Assembly: GCA_040905715.1 (NCBI GenBank)
Contig: JBBDRA010000002.1
Span: 101,968-165,967, forward strand
Origin: Minisyncoccota bacterium
Lineage (GTDB): Bacteria; Patescibacteriota; Minisyncoccia; Phycocordibacterales; CSBR16-193
Reading direction: 5' to 3'
Length of the DNA stretch: 64,000 nt
Shown here one piece after another: positions 1,787-58,850 of this stretch (position 1 is its first letter; each line of letters begins with the position of its first letter). Both the position numbers and the translations under genes were made by a program. The notes under the pieces were generated by a model that did no database searches, had not been told where the DNA came from, and saw only the letters and a list, made by a program, of their open reading frames with translations.

Positions 1787-1803
1787 AATAATCCTTTTAC
1801 TCT

Positions 1804-1974
1804 ATGGCTCAACAGAATATTCAATTTATACGTAAGGTAACTCGTGTTGGCGGCAGAAGCCTCTCTATAGTTATTCCGTCTGAGATCGTTAGCGCACTTG
1901 GTATTCGAGAGCGCCAAAAACTTACCCTTGAGCTTGACGGTGAGAGGATCATTGTCCGGGACTGGAAAGAATAA
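1804..1974 (+). CDS. AbrB/MazE/SpoVT-family swapped-hairpin DNA-binding protein (56 aa)
   Basis: Hand translation gives MAQQNIQFIRKVTRVGGRSLSIVIPSEIVSALGI...RIIVRDWKE. The RKVTRVGGS-IPSEI pattern is typical of AbrB-fold proteins. Too short for the ORF track. Confidence 0.55.
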   Translation: MAQQNIQFIRKVTRVGGRSLSIVIPSEIVSALGIRERQKLTLELDGERIIVRDWKE

Positions 1975-2044
1975 AACTATTGCGTTTTTGGGTCGAAGGT
2001 GGTTGAGTAGCCTTATGCATGAAACCGAATATGAAACCGCAATT

Positions 2045-2863: not shown

Positions 2864-2920
2864 AGTAGCTCTTCCGGGCGTATGTAAAAAAATGAAGCGC
2901 AGGCAAGAAAAGGCATAGAA

Positions 2921-2950
2921 AAAGCGGCTATACGTAGCCGCTTTTCTGTT
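2921..2950. terminator. Hairpin agcggctatacgtagccgct flanked by A/T runs (bidirectional)
   Basis: Stem-loop seen in sequence between the convergent genes ksgA and 2964-3875. Confidence 0.5.
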
Positions 2951-2963
2951 TATTTAATTTTGT

Positions 2964-3875: not shown

Positions 3876-3886
3876 GTTTTTAATAA

Positions 3887-4831: not shown

Positions 4832-4894
4832 AGTATACCACCAGCGATTGCAATCAACAGGTTAAGGTGGGGAAAAGTCTGATACAATTTAGGA

Positions 4895-5845
4895 ATGTTA
4901 CCGAGCAAGAAATTTACTTTCGTTATTATCGGCGTAGCGGTCAGTGTAGGGGGAGCTGTGTTTCTTTTCATGGGACTTGACGCTGACTCCGTGCCGTATT
5001 CACGTGATGGATTTTCTGCGGTTGCGAGAGGAGGTGCGGATGAGTTAGGTGGCCCGAATATCTCCGGCGACAGGCCGGAAAGCAGTTCAAAAGAGTCTTC
5101 GGAGGAAGATCAAGAAGTGCGTGGTCACTCAACAGCTTCAACAGATAGCGATAAAACAGCAGAATCCACAGAAATTTCTCAGCAGAGTCAAAATATGACG
5201 GATCATTATCCGGAAGATTCCTGGACAAGAGAGTTTCTTGAATACTACAACCAAACAGTTGATGAGCCGCTTATTAATTACAGTGACATAAGCGAGTTTG
5301 ACCGATCAAAGGCGCTTCGCGGCTTTCTTGAGCGGGCGGACGTAAAAAATGAACTTCGTCGATTTCGTGCGTATACTCAAAAAGACCTCACTATAAATGA
5401 TAAGGTTGCAGATGAAGATCGCCGAGACTACGGTAACAAGGTTGCACAAATATTTATCGACAATAGTTCCCCTTACAATGTGACGTCACTGTCGATCTAT
5501 AGAAAAGCTCGAGAGATTGACGATGGAGGGTTGCGTGAAGAACTTATTAATGAATTGCGAAATACACGGCTGCGTTACGAGAGAATGCAAAACGAACTTG
5601 TGCAGTTGAATGTTCCAGAGGACGCGGTTGAGGTGCATCTTGCGCTTTTGAATAGTTCGAGTTTGCTGGAAAAGCGTGTGGCCGGGATGACGCTGTTCTC
5701 ACTTGATCCGATACGAGGAGTAGTGAATGCCGGAGCGTACAAACCGCAAAGCAAGTATTTTGTAGAGAGCTATGAACAACTGGTTGCGTATCTGGAAGAA
5801 CACGAAGTGAGTTTTGCACAGGGGGAGCCTGGTTCCACGTTGTAG
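4895..5845 (+). CDS. Membrane-anchored hypothetical protein
   Basis: Single N-terminal TM helix followed by an acidic Ser-rich linker and a globular domain. Part of the T4SS-like cluster. Confidence 0.45.
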   Translation: MLPSKKFTFVIIGVAVSVGGAVFLFMGLDADSVPYSRDGFSAVARGGADELGGPNISGDRPESSSKESSEEDQEVRGHSTASTDSDKTAESTEISQQSQNMTDHYPEDSWTREFLEYYNQTVDEPLINYSDISEFDRSKALRGFLERADVKNELRRFRAYTQKDLTINDKVADEDRRDYGNKVAQIFIDNSSPYNVTSLSIYRKAREIDDGGLREELINELRNTRLRYERMQNELVQLNVPEDAVEVHLALLNSSSLLEKRVAGMTLFSLDPIRGVVNAGAYKPQSKYFVESYEQLVAYLEEHEVSFAQGEPGSTL

Positions 5846-5893
5846 GTGCGGTATACTGAGTATGATAAACGAAACTTTTAGCACGAGGGCACT

Positions 5894-7096
5894 GTGATGA
5901 CATCATTTACAAAACAGATCTGGGTAGTGGGCGGGCTTGCCATGCTTACTGTAAGCATGGGCGGTGTATTTTTGCCGTCTGCTGTGTACGCTCAAGGTGG
6001 CGGCCAGAGCGTGCCGGTGACTGATGAAGATCATATTGAGGTAAGCGAGGAGGCGAATAATATTCTCAGTAATATTCAAGAAACAAATAAAGAAAATCTT
6101 GAGCAAAATGCAAACGCCGCAGAGACGCTCAAAAAACTCCTTGAAGTGTTTACGGTGGATCACCCGGAAGGAGAAAAAGCATCCAAAGACGCGCTTGCTG
6201 AGAAATCAAAAACAAACATTGATGATTCAGTCGAGGGATACAAAGGATACATGAACAATCAGTACCTTCCGCAGTATGATTGTGAAGAGGGAGAGAATTC
6301 ATTTATTGAGACCGACCCTGATCAATACTACCAGGATGTTTCAAATAGTCAGTTTAATAGATTTCTTGTAGAGGAGTTTAGTTTTGACCGTGATGATCTT
6401 TGTGACAACGGCGACAACTACACTCCTCCCAACAGTAATGACACGCCGAACTATCAAAAAGGGTTAGTTCGCTCACTTCAGACATCTAATGCGCAAGAGC
6501 AGGAATTTGATCTGAATTACAATCTTCACGAAACAACTGACGGAAACGTCGATGAATTTATGAGTGGAGATTTTTCCCACGGCGGCTACGCCGGCCTGTT
6601 TTCGGCTTTGGGAAATTCTGATAATCATATCTACGGAGCATACACAAAGTCTAAAGGAGAATCAGAGCGGCGTGAAAGGGAAGCTCAAGAGATTGAGAGT
6701 CAGAAGCTTGAATGGAGCGGTGGGGCCCATGCTCTTACGAATAGTGATAACCAGATCCTTACGCCAGGAACGCTAAACCGTGACAGGTATGATAGAGCGG
6801 TTAATTTTTGCGAGCGGTCCCTTGTTGGTCTTGATAAACATCAAGAAGTTGCCGAGCAGTTAGATGAGCATTGTCAAGAGATCGAGAACAAGATCATGGA
6901 CGGACTTGCTCTCGATGGGTCGTTGCTTGATTCATTCGATCAGCTTATTAACGGCCTGATCAATCTTGATTACGAGGCAGAGTTTGAAAATATCATTGAT
7001 GATCTTGAGAGCGAAGCAGAAGACTACGTGAGCGACGTAATCGACGACTTCATCGGTGGCTGGCTTGGCGGCGGAGGTGGCGGTGGATTCCTTTAG
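5894..7096 (+). CDS. Secreted acidic hypothetical protein
   Basis: Signal peptide, highly acidic composition, C-terminal GGGGGG tail. Confidence 0.45.
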   Translation: MMTSFTKQIWVVGGLAMLTVSMGGVFLPSAVYAQGGGQSVPVTDEDHIEVSEEANNILSNIQETNKENLEQNANAAETLKKLLEVFTVDHPEGEKASKDALAEKSKTNIDDSVEGYKGYMNNQYLPQYDCEEGENSFIETDPDQYYQDVSNSQFNRFLVEEFSFDRDDLCDNGDNYTPPNSNDTPNYQKGLVRSLQTSNAQEQEFDLNYNLHETTDGNVDEFMSGDFSHGGYAGLFSALGNSDNHIYGAYTKSKGESERREREAQEIESQKLEWSGGAHALTNSDNQILTPGTLNRDRYDRAVNFCERSLVGLDKHQEVAEQLDEHCQEIENKIMDGLALDGSLLDSFDQLINGLINLDYEAEFENIIDDLESEAEDYVSDVIDDFIGGWLGGGGGGGFL

Positions 7097-11577: not shown

Positions 11578-13416
11578 ATGGGTATCCTTGGATTTGGAAA
11601 ATCAAAAAAAGAAGCATCTGACGACAGTCCGATCCTGCCACATCAATTAATGAACGCGGAGTCTTTGGAGCTCGAGGATATAATTGCCCCGAGTGCGCTT
11701 AAGATCACTCCGAAAGCGCTTCATCTCGGTAATAAGATCGTGCGGACACTGTTTGTGATCTCGTACCCGCGTTATCTTACCGAAAGTTGGTTCTCGCCGG
11801 TTATCAATCTAGATAAAGTTTTTGACGTATCGATCTTTATTCACCCGATCGAGACGAGTCAGATCCTGAAGAAGTTTCAGAAAAAAGTGGCAGAGGTGCA
11901 AAGTCAGATCCATGAGCGGGAAGATAAAGGGCTGGTACGTGATCCGCAACTTGACACTGCCTATCAGGATCTCGAGAATCTGCGTGACAAACTTCAGCAG
12001 GCGCAGGAACGTTTGTTCGATGTTGGGTTGTATCTCAGTATCTATGGAGACGATAAGGACGAACTGGATAAAATAGAATCAGAGATCCATTCGATCCTTG
12101 AGGCAAAACTTATTTACGTAAAACCGGCCCTGTTCCAGCAGGCGGAAGGTTTTCGTAGTGCGATCCCGATATCAACTGACGAGCTCGAAGTTCACTCAAA
12201 GTTGAATTCGACCCCGCTGTCGAGCATCTTTCCGTTTGTTTCGTTTGATCTCACGGCTGATTCAGGGATCTTGTACGGTGTTAACCGTCACAACTCAAGT
12301 CTTGTTCTGTTTGATCGCTACAGTCTTGAGAACTACAACTCAGTTACGCTCGCCAAGTCCGGTTCAGGTAAATCATACGGAACGAAACTCGAGATCCTTC
12401 GGTCACTTATGTTTGACACTGAGGTGATCGTGCTCGACCCGGAGCGCGAATACGAAAATCTCTCGGAAGCTGTTGGTGGTCGGTACTTTAATATCTCACT
12501 TACTTCCCAGCACCATATTAATCCGTTTGACCTGCCGGTGCCGACCGAAGACGAGTCTACCGCAAACATCATTCGCTCGAACATTATCCATCTGGTGGGT
12601 TTGTTCCGTATCATGATGGGTGGTTTGACGCCGGAGGAAGACGCGATTATCGATAAGGCGATCACGGAAACCTATGCTCTTAAGGATATTACCCCGGATG
12701 CTGATCTGACCAAGGTCGAAGCACCTTTGTTGTCGGACTTTGAGATGGTACTTTCGGGTATGGAAGGAGCCGAGTCGCTTTCGCAACGCCTTTCAAAGTA
12801 TACTGAAGGAACATGGGCTGGTTTTCTGAACCAGGCAACCAATGTGGATATCGAGCAGAAGTTCATCGTCTTTTCCCTGCGAGACATGGAGGACGAGTTG
12901 AAGCCGGTGGCGATGTACATCGTTACCCACCATATCTGGAATGCGATCCGTCGTCGCCTTCAGAAGCGATTGTTAGTGATCGACGAGGCGTGGTGGATGA
13001 TGAAATCTGAAGATACCGCTTCGTTCCTGCTTGGACTGGCGAAGCGAGGTCGAAAGTACTACCTTGGTCTGTCGACGATCACTCAAGATGTCGGTGACTT
13101 CCTCAAGTCTCCTTACGGCTTACCGATCATCACGAACTCATCGATGCAGTTTTTGATGAAGCAGTCGCCTTCCGGTGCGGAAAGACTTCAAGAGATCTTC
13201 CATCTTACTGAAGAGGAAAAATATCTCCTTATGGAGTCAGATGTTGGAGAAGGTATCTTCTTTGCCGGTATGAAGCATGTCGCGGTAAAAGTAATAGCCA
13301 GCTATACCGAAGATCAGATCATTACGTCTGACCCTTCTGAGATCATGGCGATCAAGAAGTCCAAAAAAGAATTTAATGAACAGGATAGTGACGAGAAGCA
13401 AGAACCGATCAATTAA
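11578..13416 (+). CDS. virB4: VirB4/TraC/CagE-family type IV secretion ATPase (body)
   Basis: Walker A AKSGSGKS and Walker B LLVIDEAWWMM, 612 aa. With the preceding 220-aa ORF the total reaches about 830 aa, typical for VirB4. Confidence 0.8.
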   Translation: MGILGFGKSKKEASDDSPILPHQLMNAESLELEDIIAPSALKITPKALHLGNKIVRTLFVISYPRYLTESWFSPVINLDKVFDVSIFIHPIETSQILKKFQKKVAEVQSQIHEREDKGLVRDPQLDTAYQDLENLRDKLQQAQERLFDVGLYLSIYGDDKDELDKIESEIHSILEAKLIYVKPALFQQAEGFRSAIPISTDELEVHSKLNSTPLSSIFPFVSFDLTADSGILYGVNRHNSSLVLFDRYSLENYNSVTLAKSGSGKSYGTKLEILRSLMFDTEVIVLDPEREYENLSEAVGGRYFNISLTSQHHINPFDLPVPTEDESTANIIRSNIIHLVGLFRIMMGGLTPEEDAIIDKAITETYALKDITPDADLTKVEAPLLSDFEMVLSGMEGAESLSQRLSKYTEGTWAGFLNQATNVDIEQKFIVFSLRDMEDELKPVAMYIVTHHIWNAIRRRLQKRLLVIDEAWWMMKSEDTASFLLGLAKRGRKYYLGLSTITQDVGDFLKSPYGLPIITNSSMQFLMKQSPSGAERLQEIFHLTEEEKYLLMESDVGEGIFFAGMKHVAVKVIASYTEDQIITSDPSEIMAIKKSKKEFNEQDSDEKQEPIN

Positions 13417-19417: not shown

Positions 19418-20800
19418 ATGGAAACTGTGGACAATAAAAAACTATGGAACAGCGTCTTGGTTGAGATAGAGTTAAATGTTTCGAAAGCAAATTTTAACAC
19501 GTGGTTCAGAGACACGTATATTCTCAAGCAAGAAGAAGGGGTTATTTATCTGGCCACACCGAACACGTTCGTAAAAGAATGGCTATCTCACAAGTATCAC
19601 AATTTTGTCCTCCGTATTCTCCGCAACATCTCTCCTGACGTACGCTCTCTGGAGTATGTCATCACAAAGAATCAGCCGAAGAATCCGCCCCAGCAGTCAC
19701 ACACCTCTCCACAAACAGAGAAACTTGGCCAAGGACAATCTACAGCAGGAGAGTTGCCTCTTGAAGAGCATTACATCAATAAAGATGACAATCTGAACCC
19801 GCGATATGGCTTCGACACCTTTATTGTGGGTCCTTTCAATGAGCTTGCGTACGCTGCTTCTCAAGCGATCTTAAAACAGCCGGGAAGAATGTATAATCCG
19901 CTTTTTGTGTACGGCGATACCGGTCACGGCAAGACTCATTTGATTCAGGCGATCGGTAACGCGCTCAAGAATGAAGAGGGAACTGACCGCAAGATCTTTT
20001 ACGTTACCTCTGAACGTTTTGTGATCGACTACATTAACGCAATTCAGGCAAACAAAGTAACACCGTTCAAGGAAAAATATCGCAAGTACGATATTTTGAT
20101 CATGGATGACATTCAGTTCCTTTCGAACAAAGAGAAGACGCAAGAAGAGCTTTTTCACCTTTTCAATACACTCTACGACAACAACAAGCAGATCATTTTC
20201 TCGTCCGATAAACACCCGAACTATATACCTGGCTTGGAAGATCGACTAAAATCACGGTTTAGTGCCGGCATGATCGTGGATATTCCGGCTCCGGACGCAG
20301 AGTCACGGGCTGCAATTCTGCGCGAGAAAGCAAAGATGAATAATATTGAGCTTGACCCGGAGGTGGTCGAGCACATCGCCTTCTCGGTGGAAGGGAATGT
20401 ACGCGACCTTGAAGGGGTCATTAATACGGTTATGTGCCAGCAGGAGCTCAAAGGGAGACCGTTGAACGTAGGGGAGGTGAAACAGGTCATTAAGAGCAGC
20501 GAGAAGCCTAAGAAGACAATGTCAGCTGAAGAGATCATTAAGACGATCGCTAATTATTACAACATTGACGAGCAAGCAATTTACCAGAAAACACGTCGGA
20601 AAGAGGTAATAAAGCCTCGTCAGCTGATCATGTTTGTGATGCGTGAGGACTTTGGTTCCTCCTATCCTTCCATCGGCCAGAAGCTTGGCGGGCGGGATCA
20701 TACGACTGTTATTCATTCCTGCGAGAAAATACGAGGAGAGCTAAAAACAGACACCGCCCTTCACCAGGAACTGAATCAGATCCGTGCACTTATTTCGTAA
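19418..20800 (+). CDS. dnaA: Chromosomal replication initiator DnaA
   Basis: AAA+ Walker A GDTGHGKTHL and a C-terminal DnaA-box-binding domain. Confidence 0.95.
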   Translation: METVDNKKLWNSVLVEIELNVSKANFNTWFRDTYILKQEEGVIYLATPNTFVKEWLSHKYHNFVLRILRNISPDVRSLEYVITKNQPKNPPQQSHTSPQTEKLGQGQSTAGELPLEEHYINKDDNLNPRYGFDTFIVGPFNELAYAASQAILKQPGRMYNPLFVYGDTGHGKTHLIQAIGNALKNEEGTDRKIFYVTSERFVIDYINAIQANKVTPFKEKYRKYDILIMDDIQFLSNKEKTQEELFHLFNTLYDNNKQIIFSSDKHPNYIPGLEDRLKSRFSAGMIVDIPAPDAESRAAILREKAKMNNIELDPEVVEHIAFSVEGNVRDLEGVINTVMCQQELKGRPLNVGEVKQVIKSSEKPKKTMSAEEIIKTIANYYNIDEQAIYQKTRRKEVIKPRQLIMFVMREDFGSSYPSIGQKLGGRDHTTVIHSCEKIRGELKTDTALHQELNQIRALIS

Positions 20801-28524: not shown

Positions 28525-30216
28525 CTATTCTTCGCTGTCTATATCAACCACTCGACGCAGTTCCTCCAGCGAGGTTATGCCTTTAAGTGCCTTTATAACG
28601 CCATCTTCGGCAAGTCTCGGAATGCCTTGTGGTTTTGCTGCCTCCCAGATCTCACGGATACTTGGATTGTCCCGGAGCGCCATCTCGATCGCCTTATCCC
28701 CAAGGATCGCCTCGTAAATACCCAGACGCCCCTTGTACCCGAGGTCGTTGCATTTATCACATCCGCCAGCTACCCACATTTTTTCTGTCTGCAGGTCAAC
28801 AAGATACTTTTCGTTCTTTTCGCGCAAACTTGCCAGGAGTCGGTCAACGGTTTCTTTGTCTTTGCCCTCGATCACAGCTTCTTTTTTGCAGTCTTCACAA
28901 AGCTTTCGTACCAGGCGCTGGGCCATTGAGAGGGTGACCGCTGAGGTGATGACTTTTGCATCTACACCAAGGTCTATTAGACGCGGGAACGTACCGGCGG
29001 CATCATTTGTGTGCAGGGTAGAGAACACAAGGTGACCGGTCAGGGCCGCGTTGATCGCGGTGTTGGCGGTCTCCTCGTCACGGATCTCACCGACCATGAT
29101 GATGTCCGGGTCCTGGCGCATCGCGGAACGTAGTCCGGCGAGGAAGTCATACCCGGCCTCATGGTTTACCTGGGTTTGCACGACTCCTTCTAGGTGGTAC
29201 TCAACCGGGTTCTCGATCGTGAGGATCTTTACATCCAGCGAGTTTACCTCGCGGAGGAAAGAATAGAGCGTTGTTGTTTTTCCGGAACCGGTTGGACCGG
29301 TGTTCAGGAGCATGCCGTTTGGCTTCTGGATCTCTCGTTTGAATATCGTAAGCAGATCGGGCGGAATACCAAGGTCTTTAAGTTCCACCTGGATCGAGGA
29401 CGGGTCAAGAATACGCATTACGATCGAGTCGCCACCCGGGGAGGGAATGACCGAAGAGCGGATCTGGATCTTTGCATTGCCGGCATCGATCGAGAACCGG
29501 CCGTCTTGAGCTTCGCTGGTAACGTTAAGCTTCATGCCTGAGACCAGCTTAAATCTAGCCATGAGGCTTTTGTAGGTCGGGTAGTCGATATCGGCGATCT
29601 TTTGGAGCACACCGTCAAGACGGTATCTCAGACGCACAGCTTCTTCTTCCGGCTCGATATGGATATCAGACGCACCGACAGCCAGCGCACCGCCAAGAAC
29701 ATGCTCGGTCAGCTCTGAGGTCTTGGTCATGGAATCCTTTTCGAGTGTTGTGGAGACGAGCTCTCCTACGTCTTGGATCGTTTTTACTTTTTCGCGGATC
29801 GCATCAATATTTTCATTTGAAATATCAACCGTTCCGCGTCGGGTTTTAAAGGAGGCGGATAGATCATCATAGGTTCGCCAGCCTTTCTCAAGACCGATCG
29901 TGGTTGTGAGAAAGGGGTTTACGACGTACCCTTTTTCTTTGAGGTCACTTAGCACTTTTTGCGTCTCCTCGCTATTTGGCTGACGCATCGCAATGCTGAC
30001 CTTGTTGTTTACGATAGCGAACGGTACGAGTTTGGCTTTTTGAGATACTTCTTTGGGAACCAGCTGCATCGCGTCACCCTCGATGTTTTTCATGGTCAGA
30101 TCAACAAACTCCATTCCGGTCTTAGCGGCCAACTGCTGGACGAAATCGTCCTCTTCGTCCGTACGGAGTTTGCTCAGCGTTCCTTCTTGGTTTTCGTCGT
30201 CAAATTGGATGATCAT
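28525..30216 (-). CDS. pilB: Type IV pilus / type II secretion assembly ATPase (GspE/PilB family)
   Basis: N-terminal GspE-N domains, Walker A GPTGSGKTTTLYS, and a tetracysteine CDKC...C motif. Confidence 0.85.
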   Translation of the reverse strand: MIIQFDDENQEGTLSKLRTDEEDDFVQQLAAKTGMEFVDLTMKNIEGDAMQLVPKEVSQKAKLVPFAIVNNKVSIAMRQPNSEETQKVLSDLKEKGYVVNPFLTTTIGLEKGWRTYDDLSASFKTRRGTVDISNENIDAIREKVKTIQDVGELVSTTLEKDSMTKTSELTEHVLGGALAVGASDIHIEPEEEAVRLRYRLDGVLQKIADIDYPTYKSLMARFKLVSGMKLNVTSEAQDGRFSIDAGNAKIQIRSSVIPSPGGDSIVMRILDPSSIQVELKDLGIPPDLLTIFKREIQKPNGMLLNTGPTGSGKTTTLYSFLREVNSLDVKILTIENPVEYHLEGVVQTQVNHEAGYDFLAGLRSAMRQDPDIIMVGEIRDEETANTAINAALTGHLVFSTLHTNDAAGTFPRLIDLGVDAKVITSAVTLSMAQRLVRKLCEDCKKEAVIEGKDKETVDRLLASLREKNEKYLVDLQTEKMWVAGGCDKCNDLGYKGRLGIYEAILGDKAIEMALRDNPSIREIWEAAKPQGIPRLAEDGVIKALKGITSLEELRRVVDIDSEE

Positions 30217-46582: not shown

Positions 46583-47161
46583 ATGGTGAAGAAGAAGGTA
46601 AAAGCGAAAGTCGGCGAGAACAGATCTCCTCAGCTAACGGGTGAACAAATACAGTATATCGAAGAGAGAATAGCCAGTATTGGATCGGCAAAGCGTTCGC
46701 TCGATGAGTTGCAGGCGCAAATGGATCAGCAGATCGAAGAGGTTCGCGAGTCGTTCCGATCACGAACACAGCAGAGTGCTACTGTGGTTCAGGAAAAGCT
46801 AGATGAGCTCTATCAGTTCTGTGAGGAGAACGCCGAGGCGGTTACTCAGGGCGGACTTCAGCAAAGTGTGAAGGTAAGCAACGGGCAACTTGGTTGGAGA
46901 TTAGGGAATACCACCGTGGAAGTAATAGAAGCTGAAGATTCGGTGATAGCTCGTATCAAGCAGCGCAGTCTAAGTCGAAAGTTGTTGATACAGACTCCGC
47001 GACTGAACAAGATAGCTATCAAAGCTTTTCTGGAAGCCGGTTGCCGCATTAAGGGTGTTGTGCTCAAAACACCTCAGCGGTTCTTCGTAAAGCCCTCTGA
47101 GACCGTGGAAGGGGTCTCGAAAGATGTTCAGACACTTCAAAAGCTCTCCGGCAAAAAGTAA
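46583..47161 (+). CDS. Phage Mu Gam-like DNA-end-binding protein
   Basis: Blockwise similarity to Mu Gam as recalled from memory, not checked against a database: FCEENAEAVTQGG vs WCEANRDELTNGG, NGQLGWRLGNTTVEV vs TGDVSWRVRPPSVSI, RLNKIAI vs EINKEAI. Confidence 0.65.
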   Translation: MVKKKVKAKVGENRSPQLTGEQIQYIEERIASIGSAKRSLDELQAQMDQQIEEVRESFRSRTQQSATVVQEKLDELYQFCEENAEAVTQGGLQQSVKVSNGQLGWRLGNTTVEVIEAEDSVIARIKQRSLSRKLLIQTPRLNKIAIKAFLEAGCRIKGVVLKTPQRFFVKPSETVEGVSKDVQTLQKLSGKK

Positions 47162-47181
47162 GGAGAAAGGCGAAGAAATAT

Positions 47182-47205
47182 AAGCAACCCTTGCGGTTGC
47201 TTTTT
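47182..47205 (+). terminator. Intrinsic terminator after the gam-like gene
   Basis: Stem aagcaaccc-ttgc-gggttgctt read as caacccttgcggttg, followed by a T-run. Confidence 0.45.
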
Positions 47206-47234
47206 GTGTGGAGAATCCGGTCATTGCAGCTTTT

Positions 47235-47395
47235 TAATTTGTGATATACTTCTATCCCAACAACACAAGTGAGTAGATAAAGAGGAAGAGGGTGTAATTC
47301 CCCACAGTCGCGCTACTGTAAAGTCAGACCTTCTTTATCGAACTTTTCCAAAGCTCACCGTGACGCGCGTTTCGTCGACTTTCTATATATAAGTC
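47235..47395 (+). promoter_or_regulatory. Candidate cobalamin riboswitch in the nrdB-nrdA leader
   Basis: GAGGAAGAGGGTGTAATTCCCCACAGTCGCGCTACTGTAAAGTCAGACC contains a GGTGnAAnTCC-like core, CGCTACTGT (B12-box-like GCCACTG with one mismatch) and an AGTCAG element. The leader is 314 nt long. Confidence 0.4.
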
Positions 47396-47397
47396 GA

Positions 47398-47430
47398 ATT
47401 AACGTGTGCACGAAGTGCACACGTTTTCTG
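47398..47430 (+). terminator. Putative riboswitch expression-platform terminator
   Basis: Perfect 10-bp stem acgtgtgcac/gtgcacacgt followed by ttttctgtt, 45 nt before the nrdB start. Confidence 0.45.
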
Positions 47431-47475
47431 TTAAACAGAAATGGGCGCTGTTGGTTTATCAGTAACTTCACTTAT

Positions 47476-48786
47476 ATGAAAATCACTGAAGTTCGGAAAC
47501 GCAATGGCTCTGTTCAGGTATTTGATAGCAGTAAGATCACCAAGGCAGTTACAAAAGCGTTTGATGCGATTGAGGGTGGCAGCAACGCTGACGCGACAAA
47601 GGTGGCAAAAAATGTTGAAAAAAAGGTGGTAGAGATGTGTGAACAGGATGCAAAGCTCCCTGATAGTTCACCGAAGAAAAAATGTAAAGACGGAAAACCT
47701 TCAGTAGAGGAGATCCAGGATCTGGTCGAAGAAGCGCTTATGGAAATGGAGTTTTATGATGTCGCTAAGGCGTATATCTTGTACAGGAATAAACGAAAGG
47801 AGATGCGTGAGCGAGACCTTTTTCGCAAACGGATCAACCTTAAGCCGTATGAATATCCGGAACTCGTGGAATACGTTGATGCTATACGGCATTCGTACTG
47901 GATCCATACCGAATTCAATTACACAAGTGATGTGCACGACTACAAGGTAAATATCACGGACATAGAAAGAAGCGCTCTTAAAAATGCAATGCTGGCCATT
48001 GCTCAGATCGAAGTGGCGGTCAAAACGTTCTGGGGAGATCTCTATAAAAAAATGCCAAAGCCGGAGCTTGGCGCGGTCGGGTACACCTTCGCTGAAAGCG
48101 AGGTGCGGCATATGAATGCGTATTCTCACCTCCTTGAGATCCTCGGTCTCAATAATGAATTTGAAGACCTCGTTGATGTGCCGGTTATACAAGGCCGGGT
48201 TGCGTATCTTGAAAAAGTGGTTGCGCTATCTCGGACCGATGACAACAAAGAATACACACAGGCAATTCTCCTATTCTCTCTCTTCGTTGAACATGTGTCG
48301 TTGTTCTCACAGTTTCTGGTAATGATGTCATTCAATAAATACAAGAACCTTTTTAAGGGCATCTCGAATACTGTTGAGGCCACATCGAAAGAAGAACAGA
48401 TCCACGGACTCTTTGGTATCGACCTTATCAATACGATTCATCGCGAACACCCGGAGTGGTTTGATGATAGAACAAAAGCTCTCATTGAGAATATGACACA
48501 GGAAGCATTCAAGGCAGAGGAGGGAATAGTCGATTGGATCTTCGAGGCAGGAGAGCTTGATTTTCTACCGAAAAAGGACGTGAAAGAGTTTATAAAGCAA
48601 AGGCTCAATAATTCACTGGTGAGTATTAAAATGAAGCCGCTCTTTGAAGTGGATGAAGAGATCGTTTCGTCTCTCAGCTGGTTCGATGAAGAAGTGATCG
48701 GCACAAAGCACGTCGATTTCTTTGCAAAGCGGTCAATTAATTACAACAAACGAAAAAGCAGCATAACGAGCGCTGACCTTTTTTAG
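47476..48786 (+). CDS. nrdB: Ribonucleotide reductase small subunit NrdB with an N-terminal ATP-cone domain
   Basis: N-terminal MKITEVRKRNGSVQVFDSSKI (ATP-cone), then a ferritin-like R2 domain with iron ligands (EVRHMNAYSH, EEQIHG). Confidence 0.8.
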   Translation: MKITEVRKRNGSVQVFDSSKITKAVTKAFDAIEGGSNADATKVAKNVEKKVVEMCEQDAKLPDSSPKKKCKDGKPSVEEIQDLVEEALMEMEFYDVAKAYILYRNKRKEMRERDLFRKRINLKPYEYPELVEYVDAIRHSYWIHTEFNYTSDVHDYKVNITDIERSALKNAMLAIAQIEVAVKTFWGDLYKKMPKPELGAVGYTFAESEVRHMNAYSHLLEILGLNNEFEDLVDVPVIQGRVAYLEKVVALSRTDDNKEYTQAILLFSLFVEHVSLFSQFLVMMSFNKYKNLFKGISNTVEATSKEEQIHGLFGIDLINTIHREHPEWFDDRTKALIENMTQEAFKAEEGIVDWIFEAGELDFLPKKDVKEFIKQRLNNSLVSIKMKPLFEVDEEIVSSLSWFDEEVIGTKHVDFFAKRSINYNKRKSSITSADLF

Positions 48787-48805: not shown

Positions 48806-50494
48806 ATGGAGAAAAAACAAGACTTTTATTGGCTCAATGAAAACAGTATTGCATTCTTGGAGCGGGGGTATTTGCAGGAAGGTCAGAGTGCACAAGAGCG
48901 CATCCGAGAGATAGCCGACACCGCTGAACGGTATCTCGGCAAAGAAGGGTTTGCCGACAAGTTCTATGACTATATGGCAAAAGGGTACATCTCTCTCGCG
49001 TCTCCTGTGTGGTCGAATTTCGGGATCGACAAAGGGCTTCCGATCAGTTGTTTTGGTTCGTATGTGGGCGACAGTATGGGGAGCATTATGTTTACCCAGT
49101 CGGAGGTAGGTATGATGAGTAAATTTGGCGGTGGAACGTCCGGATACTTCGGCGCACTGAGATCTCGCGGATCGAACATAAGTCAGAACGGACACTCTTC
49201 CGGCTCAGTTCATTTCATGCAGCTTTTTGACCTGATGGTAGATGTGGTGAGTCAGGGTTCTGTGAGGCGGGGTCATTTTTCTCCATATCTTCCGATCGAA
49301 CATCCGGATATAGAAGAGTTTCTGCAGATAGCAACAGAGGGAAATCCTATACAGAATTTGAATCACGCGGTAACAGTAAGTGATGAGTGGCTTCAGGCGA
49401 TGGTCGACGGCGATGAAGAGAAGCGGGCTCTATGGGCAAAGGTAATACAGCGACGAAGCGAGATCGGATACCCATATATCATGTTCTCTGATAACGCCAA
49501 CAATAATACGGTCGATGTGTACAAGGATAAAGGTCATAAGATCTACGCAAGTAATCTGTGCAGTGAAATAATGCTTCCCTCAAACGAAAAGTGGTCGTTC
49601 GTGTGCTGTTTGTCATCATTGAACGTCCTTCACTATGATGACTGGAAAGACACTGATCTGGTAGAGACAATGACGTACTTCCTTGACGCGGTCATCACCG
49701 ACTTCTGCACGAAATTAGAGGCGATGCGGGATTCTGATAAGAAGGAAAAACAATTGGCCTTTCAGTTCATGGAGAGAGCATATACATTTGCGAAAGAGAA
49801 TCGAGCTATTGGGATCGGCGTACTTGGATGGCATTCACTGCTCCAGTCACGAATGCTTTCCTTTGAAAGCGACGAGGCGAATCAACTTAATGTTGAGATC
49901 TTTAAGTCTATTCGGGAAAAGGCATATACAGCTTCAGAAGCTCTCGCAGAGGACTTGGGAGAGCCTGAAGTGTTAAAGGGATATGGAAGGAGAAACACCA
50001 CGCTTATGGCTGTGGCCCCAACAACGTCTTCTGCGTTTATTCTCGGACAAGTATCGCAGAGTATCGAACCGGTTTGGTCAAACTGTTATGTCAAAGATGT
50101 ACAAAAGTTAAAAGTCACCATTAAAAATCCATTTCTCGAAGATCTTTTAGAAGAAAAGGGAAAGAATACTCGTGAAGTTTGGGAAGACATTCGCAATAAC
50201 GACGGATCGGTTCAGCATTTGGAGTTTCTTACTGAAGAAGAAAGAAAGGTGTTCCGGACTTTTGCGGAATTGGATCAATCTGTAGTAATCGAGCAAGCGG
50301 CGGTACGGCAGCAGTACATAGACCAAGGGCAGTCCTTGAACATTGCTGTTTCTCCCGATGTTTCGGCAAAAGATATTAATCAACTGTACATTCAGGCGTG
50401 GCGTCAGGGAATTAAGGCGCTTTACTATCAGCATAGTGTAAACGCGGCGCAGGCGTTGAGCCGCAAAAAGATCTGTTTGAATTGCGAGGCCTGA
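48806..50494 (+). CDS. nrdA: Class I ribonucleotide reductase large subunit without an ATP-cone
   Basis: Active-site motif NLCSEI and the C-terminal Cys pair region. 562 aa. Confidence 0.85.
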   Translation: MEKKQDFYWLNENSIAFLERGYLQEGQSAQERIREIADTAERYLGKEGFADKFYDYMAKGYISLASPVWSNFGIDKGLPISCFGSYVGDSMGSIMFTQSEVGMMSKFGGGTSGYFGALRSRGSNISQNGHSSGSVHFMQLFDLMVDVVSQGSVRRGHFSPYLPIEHPDIEEFLQIATEGNPIQNLNHAVTVSDEWLQAMVDGDEEKRALWAKVIQRRSEIGYPYIMFSDNANNNTVDVYKDKGHKIYASNLCSEIMLPSNEKWSFVCCLSSLNVLHYDDWKDTDLVETMTYFLDAVITDFCTKLEAMRDSDKKEKQLAFQFMERAYTFAKENRAIGIGVLGWHSLLQSRMLSFESDEANQLNVEIFKSIREKAYTASEALAEDLGEPEVLKGYGRRNTTLMAVAPTTSSAFILGQVSQSIEPVWSNCYVKDVQKLKVTIKNPFLEDLLEEKGKNTREVWEDIRNNDGSVQHLEFLTEEERKVFRTFAELDQSVVIEQAAVRQQYIDQGQSLNIAVSPDVSAKDINQLYIQAWRQGIKALYYQHSVNAAQALSRKKICLNCEA

Positions 50495-50562
50495 TATCTT
50501 TGATGGCAGGAGACGGGTGGAGTCACGTAAAAATAGAAACACAAAATGGTACACTGGTGATA

Positions 50563-51078
50563 ATGAGAAAAGAAGATCAGCAAGGTTTTTCCCTTATTGA
50601 ATTACTCGTTGTCATCGCTATCATCGGCATACTTTCTGCGGTTGTGTTGGCGTCGTTGAGTGTGGCTCGAGATTCTGCCCACTTTGCACGAGCGAAAGCA
50701 GAGATGAGAAGTATCCGTGAGGCAATGGAGTTTTACTATAATGAGCACGGTGAGTACCCGGCAGATGCTAATCGGGGCCAGTCACCGGGTCTTGATGAGT
50801 ACCTTACTTCAGATGGATGGCCGGAAGGACCGTGGCCGGGGAGTGTGTATGACTGGGATGTGTGGGACATAGACGGAGATGGTGATGTTGATACGTATCA
50901 GATCAGTGTTCGATTTTGTCCTAGCGACACTTCTCCGCTAGAGGACTGTCGATTTCCTGACGAAGAGTGGGCGGATAACTTTGATCAACAGAGTAGCGTA
51001 TACTATTGTGTTGACGGTTCGTGCCAAGCTCATGTAGGTGAAGACGCTGATCACCCTGGATATTGCGTGAATTGCTAA
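50563..51078 (+). CDS. Type IV pilin-like protein (prepilin)
   Basis: Class III signal peptide MRKEDQQG|FSLIELLVVIAIIGIL with G-1, F+1 and E+5. C-terminal Cys pairs. Confidence 0.75.
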   Translation: MRKEDQQGFSLIELLVVIAIIGILSAVVLASLSVARDSAHFARAKAEMRSIREAMEFYYNEHGEYPADANRGQSPGLDEYLTSDGWPEGPWPGSVYDWDVWDIDGDGDVDTYQISVRFCPSDTSPLEDCRFPDEEWADNFDQQSSVYYCVDGSCQAHVGEDADHPGYCVNC

Positions 51079-54420: not shown

Positions 54421-54450
54421 AGTAAATCCACAGCTTGTGGATTTACTTTT
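54421..54450 (+). terminator. Hairpin agtaaatccacagcttgtggatttact plus T-run after rplS
   Basis: Seen in sequence. Confidence 0.5.
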
Positions 54451-54482
54451 ATCTAATTTGGTATACAATAAACACTAGAGAT

Positions 54483-55130
54483 ATGAGACGTGGATCAAAA
54501 CCAAAAGGGAAGGTGCGGATACAGTGGTCGTCTAACTTTGCGTATGCAATTGGTTTGCTTGCGGCAGATGGATGTTTATCAAAAGATGGTAGGCATATTG
54601 ACGTAACATCGAATGATTACGATCAACTTGAAAATTTTATTAAAGCTCTTGATATTGACGTAAAAATTACTCAAAAATCATCCGGAAGAGGGTATACAAG
54701 TTGGCATGTTCAGTTCAGTGATGTTCTTTTTTATAAGTTTCTTACTGAAATAGGTATAACCTCAGCAAAGAGTAAGACATTAAGAAAGCTTGATATTCCC
54801 GACGAATACTTTTTTGATTTTTTAAGAGGGGAATTTGATGGGGATGGACATTTTTATAGTTATTGGGATAAGCGATGGACGAATAGTTATATGTTTTATT
54901 TAACTTTTATTGGTGCAAGTCAGAAATTTCTTGAATGGATTTCACAAACTAATGAGCGTCTCATTGGTATAAAAGCGAATGTAATTTTTTGTAAAAAATC
55001 AAAGGTATATCAGTTACGTTATGCAAAAGAAAGCACTCTGGAAATAATCAATAAAATGTATTATACTTCCAGCGCACTTCATTTGAGGAGAAAAAAGAAA
55101 AAGATAGATGCTTTAGTAGTGCCTCGATAA
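54483..55130 (+). CDS. Free-standing double-motif LAGLIDADG homing endonuclease
   Basis: Motif 1 AYAIGLLAADGCL and motif 2 FLRGEFDGDGHF. AT-rich gene with its own ATG after the rplS terminator. Confidence 0.75.
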   Translation: MRRGSKPKGKVRIQWSSNFAYAIGLLAADGCLSKDGRHIDVTSNDYDQLENFIKALDIDVKITQKSSGRGYTSWHVQFSDVLFYKFLTEIGITSAKSKTLRKLDIPDEYFFDFLRGEFDGDGHFYSYWDKRWTNSYMFYLTFIGASQKFLEWISQTNERLIGIKANVIFCKKSKVYQLRYAKESTLEIINKMYYTSSALHLRRKKKKIDALVVPR

Positions 55131-55134: not shown

Positions 55135-55216
55135 GCCCAGGTGGCGGAATTGGTATACGCAATAGGTTGAGGGCCTATGCTCCTAGAGCGTGCGGGTTCA
55201 AGTCCCGCCCTGGGCA
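55135..55216 (+). tRNA. tRNA-Leu (anticodon GAG)
   Basis: Type II tRNA. Acceptor GCCCAGG/CCTGGGC, anticodon stem ATAGG/CCTAT with loop TTGAGGG (G37), variable arm GCTCCTAGAGCGT, T-arm GCGGG-TTCAAGT-CCCGC. Confidence 0.8.
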
Positions 55217-55510: not shown

Positions 55511-57058
55511 ATGATAACAAATAAACTTCTTTCATATATTAAAGATGAACGGGCACGAGGTGTTTCTGAGGCTCAGATCCGAAAAACTCTCATGGCTCAA
55601 GGTGGCTGGCATCAAGATGATCTCAAAGAGGCATTCCAAGCTGTGCAGAAATCGGTCGCCCAGAAAGATACTCCACAAAAGAGCGCAAAAGCGCCAGCTT
55701 CTCAGTCTGCCGCTAAACAAGCATCCGCCTCTCGAGTGAGTGACCCAATAAAGAAGAACAAAAAAGATGAAAAGTTTGGTAAGGATCTTGATTCTCAGTC
55801 TGAGAGCATGCAGACGAACAGAAAGCAACAGGCAGTAATTCCGTCTCATTCATCTGTCGGTAGAAAAGTTGTTTTATTTTTAGTAGCACTTCTTGTGTTT
55901 GTCGGTGTAGCTGTTGGCGGAGTGGCTGCGTACACGTCCATTATCGGAGGGGTAAACGAAGATTTGTCAAAAGATGAGATTTTATCTTCTGCGTTCTCAA
56001 ATTTCTCTGATGCAACCTCGTTGGAATACGAAGCTGTGTTAACTGTAGAGAGCGGTATCGATGGATCAAGGCCTCATTCTCTCCGCGTGAGCGCCGATGG
56101 AGTGTCAAGCATGGGCGCGGCTTTTAGCGATCTTACAATGCAGCATAAGGTATCTGTTGAATCAGAGACAGATGGTCAGGAACAAGGAGGGTCATTAATT
56201 GATACCGAGGTAGAGATGCGTCTAGTAGATAAGATCCTCTACTTCTATGTTGAGCATGCCCCTGAGATGACAAGAGTGTTCTTGCCTATTTCTGAGCAAC
56301 AGTGGTTGCGCTCGCCGGAGGTGGTGGCTTCGGGACGAACTGGAAGTGAGAGCGGTATTGGTCTCGATGGATTTAAAGATGAGGCAACCAGGCGGTTCGT
56401 TATTGATTCTGTTAAATTAGCCCGAGAGCATCGGGTGTACAGTATTACGGAAATAGAGGAAGAAAGAATAAATGGTGAAGGTGTACACGCTTTTAGTATT
56501 CGTTTTCATCCACAAAACATAGAGGTGTTTTTCAATGACGTGGTTGCTATGGTTTATGAGCGAGAAGATCTGCCGGATGAAGTGAGGGAAAGCGTGATAA
56601 CCTGGGCCGAGAGGAAAATTCAGCTTTCAGAAGAAGAACGAGCGCAAGAGATAGAACGCATAAAACAAGTCACTGATAATTTAGAAACCGAGATCATGAT
56701 CGGGAAGAGAGATATGCTGCCGCGTCGTATCCGTATTTCTTTCGATGGCGATGTGCCTGGTGAGCTTGTGGATCAAGGAGGTGTGAATTCTTTTGCATCG
56801 AGGGTGATCGGGAACGATCCACTGCGACGAAATGCAATGTCAGTCATCGGTTCTGCGTTTAATCCGGTCCGGGTAGCTGGTGCAGATTTTCCGCTTCTTC
56901 TCGATCTCGAGATCCGTTTTTCTGGCTTCAATGAATCGGTTAATGTAGAAGCGCCTGCCGACGCGATCGATTTTGAAGCTGCGATAAGAGATGCCCGCAT
57001 AGAAGGAGGAAGCGGCTCGGGAGATATGAGCACATCTTCAGAAGAAGTTGAGCTCTAG
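55511..57058 (+). CDS. Membrane-anchored hypothetical protein (Lys-rich cytoplasmic N-terminus, one TM helix, large extracytoplasmic domain)
   Basis: Translation features only. Confidence 0.45.
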   Translation: MITNKLLSYIKDERARGVSEAQIRKTLMAQGGWHQDDLKEAFQAVQKSVAQKDTPQKSAKAPASQSAAKQASASRVSDPIKKNKKDEKFGKDLDSQSESMQTNRKQQAVIPSHSSVGRKVVLFLVALLVFVGVAVGGVAAYTSIIGGVNEDLSKDEILSSAFSNFSDATSLEYEAVLTVESGIDGSRPHSLRVSADGVSSMGAAFSDLTMQHKVSVESETDGQEQGGSLIDTEVEMRLVDKILYFYVEHAPEMTRVFLPISEQQWLRSPEVVASGRTGSESGIGLDGFKDEATRRFVIDSVKLAREHRVYSITEIEEERINGEGVHAFSIRFHPQNIEVFFNDVVAMVYEREDLPDEVRESVITWAERKIQLSEEERAQEIERIKQVTDNLETEIMIGKRDMLPRRIRISFDGDVPGELVDQGGVNSFASRVIGNDPLRRNAMSVIGSAFNPVRVAGADFPLLLDLEIRFSGFNESVNVEAPADAIDFEAAIRDARIEGGSGSGDMSTSSEEVEL

Positions 57059-57084: not shown

Positions 57085-57666
57085 ATGACTTTTTTTACAG
57101 GAAAAGGTGATGATGGCACTACTAAAACGTTCGGTTGCAATCAGCGAATATCAAAAAGCTCGGCTATTGCCGAGGCGCTTGGTACAGTCGATGAGCTCAA
57201 CTCATTTCTGGGTTTGCTTAAAGTGAAAGGCAGTGAGAGCAACGTGCTTGTGCCGAAAACGGAGGAAACCCTTGCCTCGCTTATTCATGCTATTCAGCAC
57301 GATCTGTTTATTGTCCAAGCAGAGCTTGCCGGAGCTGATAAAGCCATCGAGGAGGAAAAGGTGGTCAAGCTTGAGAAGATCATAAACACCATTGAACGCT
57401 CGCTCCCGGAGATCACGACGTTCTTTGTCTCCGGCGGAACCGAGCTTGCTGCGCTGTGTGATGTGGCTCGCACGATCACTCGGCGCGCCGAGCGCCGAGT
57501 GATCGCGGTGTACGACGGTTCGACAGACTCACCGCAGGCGAAGGGGCAAAAAGTAGATGCGCAGACCCTGGCCTATCTCAACCGCCTCTCCAGTATCTTT
57601 TATGCGTTGGCGCGACTTGTTAATCACCAGGCCGGAGTGAGTGAGGAGTCGCCGACGTATGTCTAG
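57085..57666 (+). CDS. PduO-type ATP:cob(I)alamin adenosyltransferase
   Basis: N-terminus MTFFTGKGDDGTT and overall length match the Cob_adeno_trans family. Confidence 0.75.
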   Translation: MTFFTGKGDDGTTKTFGCNQRISKSSAIAEALGTVDELNSFLGLLKVKGSESNVLVPKTEETLASLIHAIQHDLFIVQAELAGADKAIEEEKVVKLEKIINTIERSLPEITTFFVSGGTELAALCDVARTITRRAERRVIAVYDGSTDSPQAKGQKVDAQTLAYLNRLSSIFYALARLVNHQAGVSEESPTYV

Positions 57667-57755: not shown

Positions 57756-58253
57756 ATGCCAGATGTTTCATGCAAAAAATGCGGTAATACTTTTTATGCA
57801 AAACCAAATTGGTTAAAGCGTGGCTACGGAAAGTTCTGCTCCATTAATTGTACTCGCCTGGCAAGCAGGAGGGGTAGTTGGAAAGCATGTTGCCTTTGCA
57901 AAGAAAAGGTCTACAAATCACTAAAAGATATCCGGCGGTCAAAGAGCGGGAACTTTTTTTGTAGCAAGCGGTGTAGTTTAAAATGGCTTAGGTCAAAACA
58001 ATTTGGCAGAAATCATGCAAATTGGAAGCACGGAAAATATGCTTACAGAGGGATGCTCCTTCGTAGTGCGTTGAGCAGAAAATGCAAATTATGCGGTCGT
58101 GACGACGAACGTATCTTAATAGTTCATCATATAGATAAAAATCGTGAAAATAACAAAATAGATAATCTCACTTGGCTTTGCCTGAACTGTCATTATTTAG
58201 TTCATAATTATTCAGAGGCTGAGGACCAATTTCTTGACAGTCTAAATACATAA
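57756..58253 (+). CDS. HNH endonuclease with an N-terminal Cys-rich zinc-ribbon repeat
   Basis: HNH core VHHIDKNRENNKIDNLTWLCLNCH. Two CxxC...C...C modules at the N-terminus. Confidence 0.7.
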   Translation: MPDVSCKKCGNTFYAKPNWLKRGYGKFCSINCTRLASRRGSWKACCLCKEKVYKSLKDIRRSKSGNFFCSKRCSLKWLRSKQFGRNHANWKHGKYAYRGMLLRSALSRKCKLCGRDDERILIVHHIDKNRENNKIDNLTWLCLNCHYLVHNYSEAEDQFLDSLNT

Positions 58254-58256: not shown

Positions 58257-58763
58257 ATGGAAAGGAGTTGTGAAATATGTAAAGCGACGTTTAAAACAAA
58301 ACCTTATTTTATTCGGAAAGGGCAAGGGCGCTTTTGTTCTAAAAAATGTCAATACGAAAGTTTCAAAACTGGTTCAAGTATCACTTGCGATACCTGTAAG
58401 AAGAACGTCTATAGGAATAGGTCGGGCTTAGGTAGATCCAAGAGTAGGAAATTCTTTTGTTCAAAATCGTGCCAAACAAAATGGAGAAATACGCAGTACA
58501 GTAGAGAGAAACATTTAGGTTGGAAGGACGGCGTTTCGTCATATCGAAATGCCATGCTAAGAAATAATGAATCGCAAGAGTGCAAGTTTTGCAAAGAAGT
58601 CGATGTGCGAGTTCTTGTTGTCCACCATGTTGATGAGGATCGAACCAACAACAAACTGGAAAATCTTTGCTGGTTATGCCATAATTGCCACCACCTTGTT
58701 CACCATTGCAAAGGCGAGTCAGAAAAGATTCGCTCGATCATTGGTAAAGGCAAAGAACAGTAG
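58257..58763 (+). CDS. HNH endonuclease (tandem paralog)
   Basis: HNH core VHHVDEDRTNNKLENLCWLCHNCH. Same architecture as the preceding gene. Confidence 0.7.
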   Translation: MERSCEICKATFKTKPYFIRKGQGRFCSKKCQYESFKTGSSITCDTCKKNVYRNRSGLGRSKSRKFFCSKSCQTKWRNTQYSREKHLGWKDGVSSYRNAMLRNNESQECKFCKEVDVRVLVVHHVDEDRTNNKLENLCWLCHNCHHLVHHCKGESEKIRSIIGKGKEQ

Positions 58764-58850
58764 CATATGGTGCCTATGGTATAATGGTTATTACGGAAGC
58801 TTGTGGAGCTTCAAATTCCAGTTCAATTCTGGATAGGCACCCAGAATATA

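Follow-up and report, generated by a model that had tools for sequence, protein, structure and literature searches.

We report that the leader of the nrdB-nrdA operon, which encodes a class I ribonucleotide reductase (RNR) in a genome of the Patescibacteria, a lineage of the candidate phyla radiation (CPR), is very probably a genuine compact cobalamin riboswitch that represses the operon by premature transcription termination. The leader lies in a 64-kb stretch of contig JBBDRA010000002.1 (Minisyncoccota bacterium, assembly GCA_040905715.1), referred to here as the window. Positions are those of the window unless they are preceded by the handle of another locus (L and a number).

Cobalamin riboswitch features of the nrdB-nrdA leader

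The leader comprises the 314 intergenic nucleotides between the stop codon of a Gam-like gene (47161) and the ATG of nrdB (47476), the length that an earlier note on this sequence had given. The core motifs quoted in that note are all present where it had placed them: GGTGTAATTCC at 47291-47301, CGCTACTGTAA at 47311-47321, and AGTCAG at 47322-47327. A pattern combining these core elements matches the 64-kb window a single time and matches none of 100 shuffles that preserve dinucleotide composition, and the fold of the leader is more stable than those of all 200 of 200 shuffled sequences (z = -4.8).

The earlier note had called the resemblance to cobalamin riboswitches partial, perhaps that of a divergent variant, and had proposed a covariance-model search. 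An E-value scan of positions 47100-47550 (451 nt) returned a full-length match to RF01482 (adenosylcobalamin [AdoCbl] riboswitch), a member of the cobalamin clan CL00101, which aligned model positions 1-149 with window positions 47255-47375 at 39.2 bits (E = 7.9e-6), below the curated gathering score of 50 bits for that family. The same sequence gave an E value of 6.8e-4 in a 38-kb search, or about 1e-3 when scaled to the whole window, which is significant; the stretch also drew weaker matches from two more families of the clan. "Divergent" was thus a fair description, given the score below 50 bits and the missing P6 extension. We attribute the shortfall mainly to the absence of this extension, the 16-nt P6 insert of the model being represented by 0 nt in the window. 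The B12 box reads GCUACUG in place of GCCACUG, and in the RF01482 alignment this change is compensated within P5, where AGU/GCU replaces GGU/GCC. Other Rfam matches in the leader were at chance level and were discarded (Hammerhead_1, 14.6 bits, E = 2; psbNH, 10.7 bits, E = 8).

Architecture and subclass of the aptamer

The elements of the aptamer are as follows.

47269..47345, + strand: cobalamin riboswitch aptamer (RF01482 alignment, match to covariance model R1 described below, constrained fold, inverted repeat, covariation in relatives)
47276-85 with 47330-39, + strand: P3, 10 bp, with a perfect 8-bp inverted repeat inside it (47276-83 with 47332-39)
47286-89, + strand: J3/4, AAGA (RF01482 alignment and constrained fold)
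47290-92 with 47300-02, + strand: P4, with loop L4 UGUAAUU
47306-08 with 47312-14, + strand: P5, with loop L5 CGC at 47309-11
47316-18 with 47325-27, + strand: P6, 3 bp (CUG/CAG), with a loop of only 6 nt (UAAAGU)
47271-74 with 47342-45, + strand: outer helix, option 1, GAGU/ACUU (constrained fold)
47269-74 with 47353-58, + strand: outer helix, option 2, GUGAGU/GCUCAC (constrained fold)

When P4 to P6 are fixed, the RNA folds into a P3-P6 four-way junction at 47276-47339 in which the conserved junction nucleotides are present. The hallmarks of clan CL00101 are found here, namely, the four-way junction with a GGAAG-like J3/4, CAC, the B12 box GCUACUG, and AGUCAG. Of the features of class I cobalamin (Cbl-I) riboswitches, the P7-P11 extension is absent from the alignment and the P2 loop-stem-loop from the constrained fold. 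By published criteria, Cbl-II riboswitches have a short P6 and no P2 module, and those with a bulged J1/3 are assigned to Cbl-IIa and those with a paired or mismatched J1/3 to Cbl-IIb (PMC7367189). The window aptamer has the short P6. With GAGU/ACUU as P1, its J1/3 becomes a 1x2 internal loop, as in IIb, and the alternative P1, GUGAGU/GCUCAC, can also be folded. Judged by sequence, the architecture is Cbl-II, and the sequence does not assign it to IIa or IIb or, consequently, to the form of corrinoid sensed.

With Cbl-II riboswitches (RF01689 and RF01482; PMC7367189) the window element shares the P3-P6 four-way junction, the T-loop-like L4 GGUGUAAUUCC, and an L5 free for kissing with P13, as well as the lack of a P7-P11 extension and a P2 loop-stem-loop. 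It differs in that its P4 has one pair fewer than that of most relatives with a short P6 and in that it scores below the gathering thresholds of both RF01689 (AdoCbl-II) and RF01482. Cbl-I riboswitches (RF00174) have the conserved core and the B12 box in common with the window, along with the logic of repressing a B12-independent isozyme, but they carry a long P6 extension and a P2 module, both of which the window lacks.

Cobalamin riboswitches are reportedly, to go by the title of one paper, broadly corrinoid sensitive. A variant of the cobalamin fold with a changed ligand, or one that recognizes a single corrinoid form such as methylcobalamin (MeCbl) or hydroxocobalamin (OHCbl) instead of AdoCbl, would signal something other than the availability of the cofactor of NrdJ, the AdoCbl-dependent class II RNR. 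We regard such a variant as very unlikely here. It would fit the lack of the P6 extension, which forms the adenosyl pocket of Cbl-I riboswitches, the binding of OHCbl and MeCbl by the Cbl-IIa architecture (PMC7367189), and the poor scores of nrdB-linked relatives against all Rfam cobalamin models. The top-scoring family is nevertheless RF01482, "AdoCbl," and in agreement with this P1 and P3, if P1 is taken as GAGU/ACUU, are nearly continuous, separated by a 1x2 internal loop of the IIb type, which is a feature of AdoCbl-binding Cbl-IIb riboswitches (PMC7367189).

Short-P6 relatives and covariation

Scanning metagenome contigs with a degenerate core pattern yielded 39 loci, 3 of which look like chance matches; the other 36 have the same short-P6 core and comprise 30 distinct sequences after deduplication. 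These relatives are located upstream of genes for BtuF-like binding proteins, CbiK, DUF4430 proteins, and NikA-like binding proteins, and 8 of 11 pattern-scan loci passed Rfam gathering thresholds (RF00174, 72 to 74 bits; RF01482, 58 bits; RF01689, 37 to 53 bits). A covariance model built from the 30 distinct sequences, with the window left out (R1), has a single match in the 64-kb window (47272-47343; 58.9 bits), which is partly circular because the training sequences were picked by a pattern derived from the window.

In a model-guided alignment of 35 sequences that included the window, compensatory changes were found in 10 of 14 pairs. In this alignment, which is fitted to the model and made of homologues selected with the window-derived pattern, 90.9% of cells were paired, compared to 33 to 49% with slid partners, and the covariation score was reached by 0 of 500 shuffles. 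RNAalifold recovered the same covariation in P4 and P5 from a plain MAFFT alignment. The closing pair of P5 is UA in 21 of the 35 sequences, GC in 8, and AU in 6, the window having AU.

Expression platform and proposed mechanism

Three structures can be drawn downstream of the aptamer core.

47361..47377, + strand: proposed P13 hairpin, stem UGACG/CGUCG with the 7-nt loop CGCGUUU (hairpin scan; -3.0 kcal/mol alone)
47359..47412, + strand: antiterminator, 12 bp with one bulge, pairing 47359-47371 (CGUGACGCGCGUU) with 47401-47412 (AACGUGUGCACG)
47401..47433, + strand: intrinsic terminator, an 11-bp perfect stem (47401-47411 with 47415-47425), GAA loop, and tail UUCUGUU; hairpin energy, -15.9 kcal/mol

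The terminator, the antiterminator, and P13 are mutually exclusive, and their folding energies fit an OFF switch. The antiterminator, which encloses a small hairpin (47375-81 with 47391-97), is the minimum free energy (MFE) fold both when the whole leader is folded and when only the platform is (-28.5 kcal/mol for the latter); the best fold that contains the terminator has -25.7 kcal/mol. It already forms (-26.0 kcal/mol) in a transcript that ends at 47413. Because the antiterminator is the most stable fold, read-through would be the default. The earlier note had described a perfect 10-bp hairpin and a T-run 45 nt before the start codon; the perfect hairpin and the T-run are indeed there. The stem has 11 bp and ends 50 nt before the ATG, and the last nucleotide of the T-rich tail is about 42 nt upstream of this codon.

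Between the P13 loop CGCGUUU (47366-72) and L5, (U)CGCG(C) at 47308-13, 4 to 5 nt are complementary. An L5-L13 kissing loop is described as a feature that every class of cobalamin riboswitch shares (PMC7367189), and comparable 7-nt loops follow the riboswitches linked to nrdB in L039 (CGCGCUA), L032 (CGCGCCA), and L092 (CGCACGA). The placement of P13 in the Rfam alignment (AAGCUC...GCGUUU), which contains mismatches, was dropped for the cleaner hairpin at 47361-47377, whose loop is like those of the nrdB-linked relatives.

We propose the following mechanism. Transcription would start near 47255. In the absence of ligand, 47359-47371 would pair with 47401-47412 as soon as the latter is made, the terminator would be blocked, and polymerase would read through into nrdB. 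A corrinoid bound in the P3-P6 junction would instead allow L5 (CGC(G), 47309-12) to kiss the loop of P13 (CGCG, 47366-69), and this docking would hold 47361-47377 in P13 so that the 5' strand of the antiterminator is unavailable. The terminator (47401-47425 and the U-rich tail) would then form, and transcription would stop 50 nt before the start codon. With B12 available, the cell would cease to produce the class I enzyme, which depends on oxygen and metal, presumably because an AdoCbl-dependent NrdJ can take over. In this scheme we infer that a ligand binds, that L5 and L13 kiss, that the switch turns the operon off, and that the genome encodes NrdJ; the sequence itself shows the homology and architecture of the aptamer, the terminator, and the mutually exclusive pairings.

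The aptamer could be real and its output something other than simple termination, such as an effect on translation or on the stability of the mRNA; the hairpin might also serve only for pausing or processing. Some properties of the leader would suit such an output: a 15-nt, 80% complementary repeat (47387-47401 with 47463-47477) covers the start codon, the U-tract is imperfect, the ATG is not preceded by a recognizable Shine-Dalgarno sequence, and the platform of the L032 riboswitch has no clear terminator. The pairing with the start codon is weak, however, and competes with more stable local hairpins, and a GC-rich 11-bp hairpin with a U-rich tail and a fully overlapping antiterminator, the latter being the MFE fold, is a classic design for termination. 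We therefore consider a different output unlikely and retain premature termination as the preferred reading.

Two inverted repeats are noted for completeness. The one that reaches the start codon (47387-47401 with 47463-47477) could join the pre-terminator region to the start-codon region, and another (47425-47432 with 47434-47441) pairs the U-rich tail of the terminator, UUUCUGUU, with the downstream AACAGAAA.

The transcription unit is delimited on its 5' side by two features.

47182..47210, + strand: terminator of the upstream Gam-like gene, a terminator-like site at 47182-47202 followed by TTTTGTGT (inverted repeat I5)
47242..47250, + strand: possible extended -10 element, TGATATACT, picked out by eye

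The upstream gene (46583-47161) encodes a Mu Gam-like protein, and its having a terminator of its own argues that the nrdBA leader belongs to a separate transcription unit. TTGCAG at 47224-47229 reads as a weak -35 element, with a 15-nt spacer to TGATATACT; a consensus promoter scan of the leader found no site. The transcription start is probably at about 47255 to 47258, close to the 5' end of the Rfam match (47255).

The RNR operon and its host

The genes relevant to the proposed regulation are the following.

47476..48786, + strand: nrdB, radical-generating subunit with an N-terminal ATP-cone (NrdBi type; PF03477 at residues 5-109, PF00268 [Ribonuc_red_sm] at residues 119-393)
48806..50494, + strand: nrdA, short catalytic subunit without an ATP-cone (NrdAi type; TIGR02510 "NrdE-prime," 780.6 bits against a cut-off of 602; PF02867, PF00317)
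57085..57666, + strand: PduO-type ATP:cob(I)alamin adenosyltransferase (PF01923, E = 3e-44; TIGR00636, 148.8 bits against a cut-off of 108)

The order nrdB-nrdA and the class I assignment, as the earlier note had them, are borne out by PF00268, PF02867, and TIGR02510, and the domain content identifies the enzyme as an NrdBi/NrdAi class I RNR (a class Id-type enzyme). The ATP-cone on NrdB and the CPR host are points beyond that note. The window NrdB has the same sequence as an NCBI protein of a Candidatus Paceibacterota metagenome-assembled genome. Its nearest other relatives, from Kaiserbacteria, Nomurabacteria, and other CPR groups, are 66 to 72% identical, and its homologues in Flavobacteriaceae are 61 to 63% identical. 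A protein with a prepilin-type N-methylation motif is encoded directly after nrdA (50482-51078).

The PduO-type adenosyltransferase gene to which the earlier note had pointed is confirmed by PF01923 and argues for production of AdoCbl, from corrinoid that the organism salvages. Among CPR relatives, PduO directly follows nrdJ (L130, L131/L132) or lies at most 4 kb from it (L127 to L129), and the matches listed include at least 11 pairs of PduO and NrdJ on contigs of equal size. The nrdJ genes that adjoin PduO or lie near it in L127 to L132 (e.g., L130:7630-10588 and L131:7687-10558) encode ATP-cone class II RNRs with PF17975 and the PF21995 RNR-II insertion domain. In the window, the neighbor of PduO, where nrdJ would be found in those relatives, is instead a 515-amino-acid open reading frame (ORF) at 55511-57058 (+ strand), 27 nt upstream. 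This ORF has no match in Pfam, NCBIfam, or the PDB; it has one predicted membrane-spanning stretch at about residues 120 to 140 and looks membrane anchored. Its position alone would suit a corrinoid-related surface protein.

The PduO region and two tRNA genes (55135-55216 and 58770-58841) are flanked by an ORF with a LAGLIDADG domain (54435-55130) and by tandem HNH-endonuclease ORFs (57756-58253 and 58257-58763), all of which resemble genes for homing endonucleases of the free-standing kind, here in a small CPR genome. The window also encodes a TraG/VirB4-like ATPase (11578-13416), dnaA (19418-20800), and a type II/IV secretion ATPase (28525-30216); the presence of dnaA suggests that the replication origin is probably nearby.

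Riboswitches at nrdB in other genomes

In L092, L096, and L111, a short-P6 riboswitch precedes an ATP-cone nrdB whose product is 56 to 58% identical to the window NrdB and closest to NrdB of Flavobacteriaceae. Rfam models see these nrdB-linked copies poorly (L092 and L111, 23 to 25 bits; L096, no match). Horizontal transfer of a riboswitch-nrdBA cassette from this lineage was considered and is not supported, because the NrdB identity of 56 to 58% compares with 65 to 72% for CPR relatives that have no riboswitch.

We also surveyed 80 species-representative loci that encode the window type of NrdB. A strict regular expression for the core matched none of the 80 and was discarded as too narrow, since R1 later found a riboswitch upstream of nrdB in two of them, both from CPR genomes: L032 (Parcubacteria group) and L039 (Kerfeldbacteria). 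Both riboswitches are more divergent than that of the window. L039 has, within 6.5 kb (240-6767), the order nrdJ, riboswitch, ATP-cone nrdB, nrdA, and a CobA-like adenosyltransferase gene. Its nrdJ is recognized by NF006417 (1138.6 bits; cut-off, 961) and TIGR02504 (712 bits; cut-off, 400), and its riboswitch (2737-2903) scores 25.7 bits against RF00174, below the threshold of 31.5. The copy upstream of nrdB in L032 has no Rfam match, and its platform lacks a clear terminator.

A second cobalamin riboswitch in L032 (R1, 30.8 bits; RF01689, 26.1 bits, below threshold) lies directly after nrdA and before a DUF4430 gene, in the stretch 6128-6906. Genes for DUF4430 proteins are also found downstream of riboswitches in L100, L110, and L121, and the L032 gene, in a CPR genome, probably serves to bind or take up corrinoids. 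In two Flavobacteriaceae, Flagellimonas and Allomuricauda (L038:2371-2574 and L058:2528-2725, both on the - strand), a classical RF00174 riboswitch of 91 to 101 bits adjoins an ATP-cone nrdB on the opposite strand; the gene under the L058 riboswitch is metE (773 amino acids). No riboswitch of its own was detected at nrdB in L038 or L058.

Weighing the riboswitch reading

Several observations weigh against a functional riboswitch with the mechanism proposed above. A scan of the 64-kb window at Rfam gathering thresholds found seven tRNAs and no riboswitch, the RF01482 score being below the curated value, and the R1 match carries the circularity already described. Four further contigs of the same species (L081 to L084) have leaders identical to that of the window, so that they contribute no covariation at the window locus itself. 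In the survey of species representatives, nrdB is preceded by no cobalamin riboswitch at 78 of 80 loci. Within the platform, the U-tract of the terminator is interrupted (UUUUCUGUU), and the complementarity between L5 and L13 amounts to only 4 to 5 nt of the self-complementary CGCG; chance alone would place any one 5-mer in about 5% of stretches of 55 nt. As for the physiology, neither nrdJ nor a corrinoid transporter gene was found among the ORFs examined in the window, and none of the best 120 of 8,000 CPR NrdJ matches came from the 189,394-bp contig of the window.

The sub-threshold score, the absence of the element from 78 of 80 related loci, and the lack of within-species variation with which to test selection would fit a reading in which the resemblance is a relic in decay or is due to chance. 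The operon would then be regulated otherwise, for example by a protein, or would be constitutive with only the allostery of the ATP-cone. That account is distinctly unlikely in our view, since it leaves unexplained why all conserved core blocks are intact, with the sole deviation in the B12 box compensated in P5, why the core pattern is absent from 100 shuffles, and why a 10-bp P3 with a perfect 8-bp inverted repeat is accompanied by a coherent expression platform. Regulation by a protein finds no operator to act on in the case of NrdR: the leader contains no NrdR box within 3 mismatches, the sole match in the window being at 26995 (0.41 expected by chance), and an NrdR operator was therefore rejected as unlikely. 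A compact cobalamin riboswitch that terminates transcription ahead of nrdB is the reading that we prefer.

A different structured leader RNA in CPR nrdB loci

Most CPR relatives have a different conserved structured leader, of about 190 nt, which is located upstream of the ATP-cone nrdB in 30 CPR loci (28 GTDB representatives). It was delineated with R2, a covariance model of the 5' part of the leader only, in L001 to L008, L010 to L020, L022, L023, L028, L029, L031, L033, L034, L036, L046, L085, and L086. Two examples, both on the nrdB strand, are as follows.

L011:2781-2990, nrdB strand: leader of about 190 nt (R2)
L086:2783-2960, nrdB strand: leader of about 190 nt (R2)

The leader is always on the strand of nrdB, usually 150 to 250 nt upstream of the ATG, and directly follows a -10-like box. 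It begins with AUCACACGA-loop-UCGUGUG UGUC-GGAGGUAA-GACACAC and contains further blocks, GGUGUGUUUGUCGCGACC and AUUGCGC..UAGACCUAAUUG ... CCACCAAUUAYGUCUG..GCAAU, that pair in a long-range helix showing many kinds of compensatory pair. Scans of 11 of the loci gave no match to Rfam 15 at E ≤ 1. The leader is absent from the window, from L032 and L039, and from all Flavobacteriaceae loci, and the cobalamin riboswitch of the window, L032, and L039 occupies the position that it holds elsewhere. The leader of the CPR ATP-cone nrdB may normally be an undescribed, strongly covarying RNA and, if that RNA is a ligand sensor, the window, L032, and L039 would represent the replacement of one riboswitch by another on a single operon. 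In that event, an ultra-small bacterium that depends on a host would be reading corrinoid from outside to choose between its RNRs. We offer this tentatively, as a possibility that we do not favor.

Discussion

Repression of a B12-independent RNR by a B12 riboswitch is a principle known since 2003 to 2006. The window adds an example and leaves that understanding unchanged: the logic is as before, the host (CPR) is new, and the class I subtype is a different one. In the literature searched, we found no paper that combines Patescibacteria, riboswitch, and cobalamin.

A close parallel is nrdABS of Streptomyces, where a B12 riboswitch in the class I RNR leader represses the operon when coenzyme B12 is present and the organism also has a class II NrdJ (Borovok et al. 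2006, J Bacteriol 188:2512, as cited in PMC12528414). B12 riboswitches are also reported for other RNRs (PMC12528414). The statement of the earlier note that such riboswitches repress class I RNRs in organisms that carry nrdJ is documented by the Streptomyces case, and the corresponding set of genes occurs together in the CPR locus L039. In both systems, the 5' leader of the class I RNR operon contains a B12 riboswitch. They differ in that the target in the window is an NrdBi/NrdAi enzyme, with the ATP-cone on the beta subunit and the gene order B then A, and in that the host belongs to the CPR and the aptamer is a minimal one with a short P6. NrdJ is seen in Streptomyces, whereas its presence in the window genome is only presumed.

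Leeuwenhoekiella blandensis has an NrdAi/NrdBi class I RNR and also a class II RNR (PMC5794259). Its enzyme resembles that of the window in the N-terminal ATP-cone on NrdB and the short NrdA without a cone, but no riboswitch is described for the operon, the term being absent from PMC5794259. The Cbl-I riboswitches of the Flavobacteriaceae loci L038 and L058 differ from that of the window in that they are not directed at the adjoining nrdB.

Compact riboswitches linked to nrdB score below Rfam thresholds (39 bits in the window, 23 to 25 bits in L092 and L111, and none in L096), so annotation pipelines miss them. The conserved leader RNA of the CPR nrdB loci may be a more valuable lead than the riboswitch itself.

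The window element would document B12 sensing in a Patescibacteria genome and would imply that these organisms, whose genomes are reduced, salvage and adenosylate corrinoids. It would also extend riboswitch control to NrdBi/NrdAi, an enzyme that is regulated allosterically as well, through the ATP-cone of NrdB.

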